Of a stretch of DNA of 64,000 nucleotides, positions 25,687 to 37,769 are shown piece after piece; the first letter of the stretch is position 1; each line of letters begins with the position of its first letter. Origin of the DNA: a virus (lineage: Duplodnaviria > Caudoviricetes). Both the position numbers and the translations under genes were made by a program. The notes below the pieces were generated by a model. It made no database searches. It was not told where the DNA came from and saw only the letters and a program-made list of their open reading frames with translations. Location: positions 1 to 64,000 of IMG/VR virus record IMGVR_UViG_3300037400_001189; one strand, 5' to 3'.

Positions 25687-25705
25687 GGAATTCTCCTAAT
25701 ATGAG

Positions 25706-25777
25706 AGCCAGAGGCAGGACTTGAACTTGCAACTTTGAGATTACAAGACTCTTGCTCTACCGTTGAGCTACTCCGGC
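25706..25777 (-). tRNA. tRNA-Thr(UGU), possibly degenerate
   Basis: GCCGGAG/CTCTGGC acceptor stem, D arm GCTC/GAGC, CT-TGT-AA loop, TTCAAGT T loop; mismatches in the anticodon and T stems; no CCA. Confidence 0.7.
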
Positions 25778-35432: not shown

Positions 35433-35509
35433 TGGCGGGTCTAGAAGGAGTCGAACCTTCGACCAACAGCTTAGAAGGCTGATGCTCTATCCTACTGAGC
35501 TATAGACCC
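35433..35509 (-). tRNA. tRNA-Arg(UCU)
   Basis: Full cloverleaf GGGTCTA...CT-TCT-AA...GGTTCGACTCC...CCA; AGA looks like the dominant Arg codon here. Confidence 0.95.
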
Positions 35510-35512
35510 TTA

Positions 35513-35596
35513 TGGTACAGGCAGAGGGATTCGAACCCTCATGGCATAAGCCGGAGCATTTTGAGTGCTGTGCGTATTCCATTCCGCCATGCCTGC
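35513..35596 (-). tRNA. tRNA-Leu(CAA)
   Basis: GCAGGCATGGCGGAATGG...CT-CAA-AA, long variable arm, GGTTCGAATCC, CCA end. Confidence 0.95.
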
Positions 35597-36113: not shown

Positions 36114-36488
36114 CTAGTCCTCCTTCAGTTTTACGATTTCGCCTTCTTCGTTAGTATAGAAGACGTTCTTTATTCCTATGTAGTTCATCAGCTTTCTGCA
36201 CATCTCGCATGGACATGCATTGCCAAGCCTTTCCTCAGCCCTGCTTATCTTCACGACAAGCATGGAGCAGCCTTTCAGCTTCTTCCATTCCAAACCAAGT
36301 AATGCAGACTGTTCCGCATGTAAAGAGTTCTCGTAGTTTTTATGTTTGAGGGAAGAGGAACGTATCTGGTTCCAGCCAGTAGACAGAATCCTCTTTCCCT
36401 TAAACACGACAGCTCCAAGTTTAACCCTGTAGGTGGATTTCCTAGCAGCTTCTATGGCTGCATGGAGTATGCCTGTAGACAGTGCCAT
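36114..36488 (-). CDS. Zinc-dependent cytidine/dCMP deaminase-fold protein
   Basis: LGAVV...STGWN, HAE, PCEMC. Confidence 0.85.
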   Translation of the reverse strand: MALSTGILHAAIEAARKSTYRVKLGAVVFKGKRILSTGWNQIRSSSLKHKNYENSLHAEQSALLGLEWKKLKGCSMLVVKISRAEERLGNACPCEMCRKLMNYIGIKNVFYTNEEGEIVKLKED

Positions 36489-36596: not shown

Positions 36597-37595
36597 CTAA
36601 ATAGACGTTCGTATGCAAATGGATGCACAATGTCCATTTAAACCTACCGAATTGATGCAGGCTACGGAGTTCTTAGGAGAGGATGCCACGGTAAGAGCAG
36701 TCTCCACTGCTCCACATGCTCCCAGCATGTGTCCCAGATGCTTCTTCCAAGTGAATGTCTTAGGCTTCTCTTTAAATTCAAACATCTCGCAATGTCTCTT
36801 TACTGCTTCCATCTCTACTTCGTCTCCCATTGGAGTGCCTGTGGCATGCATGGAGAGAACGGAAGGAACGAAGTTGAAGCATGCAGTTCTCATGCATGCA
36901 AATATTTCGTCTGGAGAAGATGCAGTTCTAGACATTCCTGTATGTTCAGAGAAGCCTTCTATGATTCCATAGATGTTTCTGCCATGCTCTAGTGCATCGT
37001 AATAGTCTTCCAGAACAAGCAGTCCACAGCCTGAAGAGAGAACTGTTCCTGTCCTGTCTGGATCTAGAGGCATGCATTCATGCTTAGTGAGAAGATGCAT
37101 CTTCCTGAAGAACTCAAGAGTGTTGAGGTCTAGTGCATTTGTACCTCCCACTACTGCCATGTCTGCATAGCCATGCCTGATAGCCTTCACTCCTGCTATG
37201 ATGTTGGAAAGAGAAGTGCAGCATACGGAAGATATGCCTTGCACTGTTCCTCTGAATCTGTTTGCAAGAGCTACAGTATCTGCAACATTGGAATTAAAAG
37301 ACTTGTAGAAGTCTGATGCACGTTCTAGTTCCTTTCCATGAGTACTGATCTCTCCTATGTAGACATCAGTGTTAGGAGCAAACCATAGAGCTTCCTTTTC
37401 CTTGATGGCATCTAGAGTGTCTAGTGCCATCTTTGAAGAAGAAATGTTTCCACAGGAACCATACGGATAGGGATAGTCTTCATGCTTTCTATAGCATTTC
37501 ATTCCCTTCTCTATGAATTCCTTGGTGGATTCTAGTGAGCCAAGAGGAGTAGTCACTCCCATTCCAACGATAGCTACTGGAATATAGTGGTTCAT
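36597..37595 (-). CDS. fabF: Beta-ketoacyl-ACP synthase (FabF/FabB-like), compact
   Basis: VAIVGMGVTTPLG, catalytic Cys (SSVCCTS), His (MHATGTPMGD), KKHLGH, SSGCGLLVLE, NSVGLNGH. Confidence 0.85.
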   Translation of the reverse strand: MNHYIPVAIVGMGVTTPLGSLESTKEFIEKGMKCYRKHEDYPYPYGSCGNISSSKMALDTLDAIKEKEALWFAPNTDVYIGEISTHGKELERASDFYKSFNSNVADTVALANRFRGTVQGISSVCCTSLSNIIAGVKAIRHGYADMAVVGGTNALDLNTLEFFRKMHLLTKHECMPLDPDRTGTVLSSGCGLLVLEDYYDALEHGRNIYGIIEGFSEHTGMSRTASSPDEIFACMRTACFNFVPSVLSMHATGTPMGDEVEMEAVKRHCEMFEFKEKPKTFTWKKHLGHMLGACGAVETALTVASSPKNSVACINSVGLNGHCASICIRTSI

Positions 37596-37719
37596 TTAAT
37601 AGCCTCCTATAGGGGTATTTGACATAGTGTCACTATAGGGAAAATAGGGTTCAAAAAGAGATTTGTCATATAGGTTGACAGATTTTTTTACAAGATTATT
37701 TCTGAATAGAAAGCTGTAC

Positions 37720-37757
37720 AAAAAATAAGGGAGAGACTCCGAAGAGTCCCTCCCTTT
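37720..37757 (-). terminator. Terminator after the RNA polymerase gene
   Basis: Hairpin with a UUCG loop on the - strand, followed by a U tract. Confidence 0.8.
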
Positions 37758-37769
37758 GTAATTTTCCTG

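Follow-up and report, generated by a model that had tools for sequence, protein, structure and literature searches.

The locus and its gene context

We analysed a stretch of 64,000 nucleotides (the window) that forms part of a complete viral genome of 75,006 bp with direct terminal repeats. The genome has several N4-like features: a 4,367-aa ORF for a virion RNA polymerase and an unsplit 574-aa RNAPII, with a dCMP deaminase gene, two tRNA genes, rIIA and rIIB downstream. Its source is probably an uncultured N4-like phage of the rumen, and the features of the window point to an anaerobic host with Shine-Dalgarno sites, which is therefore probably not a member of the Bacteroidota. The gene that follows RNAPII encodes a ketosynthase (KS), and the genome also carries a gene for a protein resembling an acyl carrier protein (ACP). 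The features of both regions are collected in Table 1.

Table 1. Coordinates, in the window, of the ketosynthase gene, its surroundings and the candidate carrier gene
Feature	Position	Strand	Basis and remarks
Trimmed KAS I/II-type ketosynthase (KS) ORF, 332 aa, P0001	36597..37595	minus	ORF and translation, Pfam, AF2/Foldseek, dN/dS, 25 variants
T7-like RNA polymerase (RNAPII homologue), unsplit, 574 aa	37770..39494	minus	PHROG RNA polymerase families; directly upstream of KS
Conserved intergenic region, 174 bp	37596..37769	minus	Sequence, terminator scan, five-phage alignment
RNAPII terminator: 13-bp stem, UUCG loop, then T run	37756-37727	minus	Terminator scan
Palindrome TGTCA-N7-TGACA	37680-37664	minus	Sequence
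Palindrome ATAGTG-A-CACTAT	within 37596-37769	minus	Sequence
Shine-Dalgarno AGGAGG	37608-37603	minus	7 nt ahead of the KS ATG
dCMP deaminase	36114..36488	minus	Pfam and PHROG; downstream neighbour of KS, variable slot
ACP-like protein, 94 aa	18185..18469	minus	PF00550, 26.7 bits; candidate KS partner, 18.1 kb away

The window as a whole has a GC content of 40% and contains an anaerobic NrdD/NrdG pair. AGGAG or GGAGG stands 4-22 nt upstream of 33 of its 62 ORFs, against a background of 3%. Its three tRNA genes are Thr-TGT, Arg-TCT and Leu-CAA (25705-25777 and 35433-35596), and those for Arg-TCT and Leu-CAA lie between rIIA and a small ORF downstream of the dCMP deaminase gene.

An earlier note on this DNA had proposed that the KS gene has its own promoter behind the RNAP terminator, after a gap given as 170 bp. 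The terminator and the gap are there, and the gap is strongly conserved: in pairwise comparisons of five sister phages, the terminator is 99% and the next ~100 nt are 95.5% identical, whereas the synonymous sites of KS reach only ~67%. As identity in the gap is far above that at synonymous sites, the region between RNAPII and KS is constrained, and we infer that it holds a dedicated promoter or a 5'UTR/leader. The proposal of a promoter thus stands in part, although a sigma-70 promoter scan upstream of KS returned nothing above chance. The 5' region of KS folds no better than shuffled sequences (z -1.06), and CCCTATAG and the two upstream palindromes, both perfect, were found nowhere else in the window.

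The ketosynthase is cargo of one phage lineage

To place the locus among related phages, we used the unsplit RNAPII as a marker. Searches returned at least 86 homologues of 564-600 aa at 30-42% identity, many of them on contigs of 73-80 kb, which define a group of N4-like phages that is broad and for the most part uncultured. Four relatives on contigs of 46-77 kb, which we take from their record labels to come from ruminant gut samples, have an RNAPII that is 37-41% identical to that of the window; in all four, small unknown ORFs and no KS follow the RNAPII gene. The slot between KS and rIIA also varies in content. It is occupied by dCMP deaminase in the window and in L005, and by small ORFs and a T4 Rnl2-like RNA ligase in L002 (11483-13153) and G002, a 68-kb contig that gave no KS match but begins at the RNA ligase just downstream of the KS slot, so that it is cut off there and does not bear on the presence of KS. 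The lack of KS in relatives and the variable slot downstream together indicate that a single lineage acquired KS as cargo, in a region of variable content.

Database searches gave a similar picture. Neither KS nor the ACP-like protein belongs to a PHROG or a PADLOC family. A tblastn search with KS in 50,697 phage records found host-like FabF on contaminated or unannotated records only, and megablast of the 15-kb KS neighbourhood gave no match. With its absence from the four RNAPII relatives, this agrees with the statement of the earlier note that KS lies outside the usual N4-like gene set. In the literature on phage or N4-like ketosynthases we found lists of auxiliary metabolic genes (AMGs) only, and no diverged phage-specific KS.

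A trimmed ketosynthase with a complete catalytic set

The KS matches PF00109 (ketoacyl-synt, 79.3 bits, E 4.6e-22) and PF02801 (Ketoacyl-synt_C, 39.9 bits) above the Pfam cut-off of 20.8; the PF00109 match covers profile positions 139-252 only, that is, the second half. As both Pfam ketosynthase domains are matched, the ORF is not a chance ORF. Among NCBIfam models the top match is fabF (TIGR03150), at 105 bits against a cut-off of 493.75, followed by a spread of other KS families at 80-97 bits; the third-best match is the KS-like acyltransferase subunit AmcF (88 bits), and the FabB model NF005935 gives 83 bits against a cut-off of 630. Since fabF is so far below its cut-off and many families score 80-97 bits, no equivalog fits the phage KS. 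An AF2 monomer model, built on a 30-sequence alignment (pLDDT 90.6, pTM 0.92), has a thiolase fold, and its best Foldseek matches in the PDB are FabF and FabB structures (TMq 0.82-0.88, E 3e-26 to about 1e-25).

KS enzymes condense acyl-ACP with malonyl-ACP, and the residues for this reaction are present in the phage protein. The triad is Cys125-His250-His289, together with Lys284 and Thr252/254; Cys125 lies in SSVCCTS, His250 in MHATGT, and Lys284 and His289 in KKHLGH, the lysine standing five residues ahead of the second histidine. In the 30-sequence alignment with cellular ketosynthases, the motifs of C125, H250, K284 and H289 are invariant. Phage residues C125, H250, T252, T254, D258 and E261 align to C163, H303, T305, T307, D311 and E314 of FabF (E. 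coli reference from the annotated K-12 record), and K284, H289 and E298 align to K335, H340 and E349. The three motif contexts in a protein of only 332 aa, as reported in the earlier note, are thus all present.

We also asked how this set varies among sister phages, whose contigs reach 74-77 kb and from which we obtained 25 distinct full-length KS sequences, each exactly 332 aa long. Although 93 of the 332 positions vary among the 25 variants, none of these is a catalytic or core position, and the pivot glycines are likewise invariant. Pairwise dN/dS of the KS gene is 0.10-0.24 at a dS of 0.35-0.5 (five DNA copies). That all catalytic residues are kept under purifying selection argues for catalysis by the phage KS. 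From these features we infer a decarboxylating enzyme of the Cys-His-His (KAS I/II) condensing type that is catalytically competent though heavily trimmed. The description as a streamlined FabF-like KS is upheld by the Pfam domains, the FabF/FabB fold, the selection on the gene and its constant length.

Loss of the FabF gate, pocket segment and docking residues

The phage KS shares with E. coli FabF and FabB (for example PDB 2gfw, 1dd8 and 6okg) the thiolase fold, both Pfam domains, the triad and the equivalents of Lys335, Thr305/307, Asp311, Glu314 and Phe202. In contrast, it has 332 aa where FabF/FabB have 406-413, and identity is about 27%. Three deletions stand out: about 17 residues at FabF ~52-68, about 18 at FabF ~109-126, and about 35 at FabF ~355-389, after the GAxGAVE helix. 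The last of these had been recognized in the earlier note as a missing loop; the FabF stretch beginning PPTINLDNPD (about 35 residues) has no counterpart in the phage protein, which runs from the helix directly into the last two beta-strands by a FabH-like link. FabH (KAS III, 317 aa) is indeed of similar size and also has its last helix joined directly to two C-terminal strands. The FabH triad, however, is Cys-His-Asn, and Pfam places that enzyme in other families than KAS I/II. Unlike FabH, the phage KS has the second histidine, and Pfam gives for it the KAS I/II domains and, under threshold, a thiolase match, but no family of the KAS III type.

Crosslinked FabF-AcpP structures have defined two ACP-contact regions of FabF, one formed by K65, R68 and K69 and the other by R127, K128 and R206 with I129-F132 (PMC7138838). 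The same study describes a gate that opens for long acyl-ACPs and consists of loop 1 (G399-F-G-G402, with N396 and N404 at its flanks) and Asp265 of loop 2 (PMC7138838). Asp265, which is kept in 26 of 26 cellular homologues, has no counterpart in the phage KS. In loop 1 (phage N315-S-V-G-L-N-G-H-C323), GFGG has become GLNG: G401 (conserved in 25 of the 26) is N320, N404 (24 of 26) is C323 and F400 (23 of 26) is L319. The docking residues have changed as well, with K65 falling in a deletion, R68 replaced by C, K69 by G, R127 by E and K128 by L, and R206 aligned to a histidine with R164/K165 close by; the alignment of these loops is uncertain. Residues 83-93 of the phage protein replace a pocket-lining segment and are the least confident part of the AF2 model.

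Segments 83-93 and 157-172, which align with ACP-contact region 2 of FabF, are the two most variable segments among the 25 variants. They occur in two co-varying versions, ISTHGKELERA with DLNTLEFFRKMHLLTKH and STTPHYPSDKV with DPETMEFFKKMHILSRY. Recombination may lie behind this pattern, or else an adaptation to differing partners in the host.

The loss of the FabF gate and docking residues argues against a plain replacement of FabF. Taken together with the missing segment of the deep pocket, this loss speaks for a short or special primer rather than bulk C12-C18 elongation. E. coli FabF mutants with D265A/N or a blocked pocket lose long-chain handling and keep short-chain handling (PMC7138838). 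Together, these mutant data and the alignment of the loops, which is its least certain part, suggest a short or special substrate for the phage KS. The change of Gly401 to Asn and the loss of Asp265 could also impair normal catalysis.

A diverged clade with no stable sister

The sole close relatives of the phage KS are metagenomic proteins at 83-92% identity (647-719 bits). Among 5.8 billion proteins, the best match outside this clade is a cellular FabF that scores 78 bits, with about 33% identity across 60% of the length. An exhaustive HMMER scan of 1.84 billion representatives found one KS cluster above 50% identity and no other match above ~172 bits, in a listing dominated by multi-domain polyketide synthases (PKSs) in which weaker single-domain KS relatives would be hidden. 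The ESM Atlas holds a 327-aa KS-like cluster that is 94% viral and represents either the KS's own cluster or a wider family.

The earlier note had considered that the gene might nest among recent host fabF copies and show decay. We rule out a recent, decaying copy of a host fabF: the nearest cellular protein is only about 33% identical, dN/dS is low, protein length is constant, and the GC content of KS is that of its neighbourhood. That note had also proposed a phylogeny. In a mixture-model tree the KS clade sits on a stem of 3.06 substitutions per site with an attachment support of 22/0 and has no stable sister. A 383-aa viral KS group that appeared as sister in two quick trees (SH-aLRT 92 and 87; long branches meeting) was rejected, as this grouping dissolved in the mixture-model tree.

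An ACP-like protein and a search for further pathway enzymes

The ACP-like gene is placed in a nucleotide-metabolism operon, where it overlaps both of its neighbours, nrdG on the upstream side and the gene for a PD-(D/E)XK exonuclease on the other. Its product scores above the PF00550 (PP-binding) cut-off of 20.8 bits and under the NCBIfam ACP cut-offs. It carries the motif LELDS41LD, in which Ser41 is conserved. All 58 of its 58 PDB sequence matches and its top fold matches are ACPs, although these matches are weak (E >= 0.005, TM ~0.5). AF2 predicts a bundle of four helices (8-26, 41-54, 66-73 and 78-93; pLDDT 72), and helix II begins with Ser41. The phage ACP reported in the earlier note is therefore a real ACP-like gene at about the distance given there.

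Column identity among 15 variants of the ACP-like protein is 97%, and we detected no relatives beyond this phage clade; phages with NrdD-NrdG at 52-62% identity have no ACP after nrdG. Co-occurrence of KS and ACP is seen directly in the genome of the window and, for sister genomes, deduced from identically sized contigs (76,353 and 77,084 bp). On the basis of this co-occurrence within one phage clade, the two proteins are candidate partners, with genes that lie 18 kb apart in different operons. The variable KS segments 83-93 and 157-172 and the almost invariant phage ACP make a poor fit with a tight interface between KS and phage ACP.

To see which further steps of an acyl-chain pathway the phage encodes, we searched the complete 75,006-bp genome with profiles, with positive results for the controls. 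PF00698, PF13561, PF07977, PF03061, PF00501 and PF01553 gave no match at E<=1, nor was there a match to PF01648 (phosphopantetheinyl transferase, PPTase). By these searches the genome is without a malonyl-CoA:ACP transacylase, an SDR/FabI-type reductase, a FabA/Z-type dehydratase, a 4HBT thioesterase, an adenylating enzyme and a PlsC-type acyltransferase. The acyltransferase, thioesterase and PPTase that the earlier note suggested looking for were thus not found with these profiles, and its notion of a phage mini-FAS/PKS was overstated, as only a condensing enzyme and a carrier, unlinked to each other, are phage-encoded. With no other FAS/PKS enzyme in the 75-kb genome, host enzymes would be needed, including a host PPTase to activate the phage ACP.

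Ketosynthases on other viral contigs

Other solitary ketosynthases of 383-404 aa occur on IMG/VR viral contigs. These groups reach 248-326 bits on the fabF model and mostly keep D265, GFGG and N404; N404 is S or A in one group, and the enzymes of L022 and L033 lack D265 and have AFGG instead of GFGG. The phage KS is at most 29% identical to any of them. Because the others mostly keep the gate and score 248-326 bits, the phage KS is an outlier even among phage ketosynthases, and it differs from most of them in having lost the FabF gate; its candidate carrier is unlinked. All of these viruses encode a condensing enzyme of the Cys-His-His type, in many cases together with a carrier of their own and without further lipid enzymes.

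The surroundings of these genes vary. A solitary KS of 382-387 aa recurs on viral contigs of 27-127 kb (L015; also L009-L020, L024 and L030). In L015 (32-8743) it stands in a block with an AAA/MoxR ATPase, an AMP-binding enzyme, a tryptophan-halogenase-family protein, a 205-aa unknown protein and a DUF2201 VWA-metallopeptidase; the block has the look of a small virus-borne cluster of natural-product type. In the 119-kb viral contig L029 (5013-6730), the gene for a 404-aa KS shares an overlap with the dCMP deaminase gene that follows it, the same type of neighbour as in the window, and TauD, GMP reductase and redoxin genes are close by. The 397-aa KS of L022 (3711-5798; a 172-kb contig) lies directly behind a fatty-acid desaturase gene.

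A further case comes from an unrelated phage, G003 (IMG/VR, 55.9 kb; L112 717-1827), which also has NrdD-NrdG. It encodes a 289-aa mini-KS with Cys/His/His motifs and a Ketoacyl-synt_C match of 36 bits, which is smaller than, and barely similar to, the 332-aa KS. The start of the mini-KS gene is overlapped by an upstream 84-aa ORF containing IDSFGY, which is ACP-like by eye and has no Pfam match. Host-type fabG-acpP-fabF sets have been listed in predicted roseobacter prophages as AMG carriers (PMC8224337). Overall, carriage of ketosynthases by phages is recurrent and apparently undescribed, and the locus studied here represents a split, extra-trimmed variant.

Possible roles of the phage ketosynthase

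The arrangement of a private condensing enzyme and a private carrier, with the other steps taken from the housekeeping type II fatty-acid synthase (FAS II), has a parallel in rhizobial NodE/NodF. NodE is of full length, and nodF and nodE are adjacent. In the phage, in contrast, the KS is trimmed and the two genes lie far apart, so that the likeness is one of arrangement, with no specific sequence relationship shown. On balance, we think it somewhat probable that the KS, possibly with the phage ACP, acts as a NodE/NodF-like add-on to the host FAS II that handles a short or special substrate. KS would be transcribed after infection from its own conserved control region behind the RNAPII gene, and an acyl primer would be loaded onto Cys125. 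The enzyme would then condense this primer with malonyl-ACP, or possibly malonyl-CoA. The thioester carrier may be the host ACP or the phage ACP-like protein, the latter presumably activated by a host phosphopantetheinyl transferase. Malonyl loading, reduction and dehydration would be provided by the host type II FAS, as in the rhizobial system.

Other readings assign the enzyme a broader or a different task. It could be a generic substitute for FabF/FabB that keeps up or boosts bulk membrane fatty-acid synthesis, for example after host shutdown. The fabF model is indeed the top NCBIfam match, and FabF and FabB are the best structural matches; solitary FabF-like genes exist on other viral contigs, one of them directly after the desaturase gene of L022, and the roseobacter prophages carry fabG-acpP-fabF. 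Nonetheless, the phage KS stays far below both the fabF cut-off and the scores of the other viral groups, it has lost D265, GFGG, N404, K65/R68/K69 and R127/K128 as well as a pocket-lining segment, and a private ACP would be needless for such a role, which leaves us regarding a generic substitute as distinctly unlikely. A KS scaffold that does not condense at all, and instead serves as a malonyl-ACP decarboxylase, as an acyltransferase of the AmcF type, or as an ACP binder that redirects resources by draining or blocking fatty-acid synthesis in the host, would account for the altered gating and docking elements of the normal ping-pong cycle and for a genome without a companion pathway gene, and AmcF ranks high among the NCBIfam matches. 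We hold this to be improbable, as the cysteine, both histidines, Lys284, Thr252/254 and the pivot glycines are invariant in the 25 variants and a pure binder would need no full catalytic set. Decarboxylase-only ketosynthases (KSQ/CLF types) replace the cysteine, which also counts against a non-condensing role.

The remaining alternatives concern the product rather than the reaction. By themselves, KS and phage ACP might produce a small beta-keto acid or a short molecule resembling a polyketide, such as a signal, a cofactor precursor or a modifier of proteins or nucleic acids, and not a membrane lipid. Neither protein occurs outside this phage clade and both are strongly constrained within it, more distant relatives are without KS, the NrdD-NrdG phages are without ACP, and G003 offers a candidate ACP-KS pair in another phage lineage. 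However, the KS and ACP genes are unlinked, and the genome has no thioesterase for release and no loading enzyme, so that we consider such a self-contained pathway highly unlikely. A related reading that we judge unlikely is a two-protein, phage-private system in which the gate and pocket of KS were rebuilt for one short, specific substrate. During infection, such a system would yield a dedicated beta-ketoacyl product that acts as a signal, as a cofactor precursor or as acyl donor to some component of the phage, and not a membrane lipid. The pair would then belong to a wider class of phage ACP-KS systems.

With its catalytic set kept, but with neither the FabF gate nor the deep pocket segment nor the usual docking residues, the phage KS comes near to a naturally occurring minimal ketosynthase of the Cys-His-His type. 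It should therefore be useful for separating those parts of the KAS I/II fold that serve catalysis from those that serve substrate gating. It is the condensing enzymes that determine how long a fatty acid or polyketide becomes and which one is made, and a lytic phage must gain from a changed acyl chemistry in its host if it maintains such an enzyme. If the product of one phage ACP-KS pair were known, a type of phage accessory gene that recurs in the viromes of gut and rumen would probably be explained as well.
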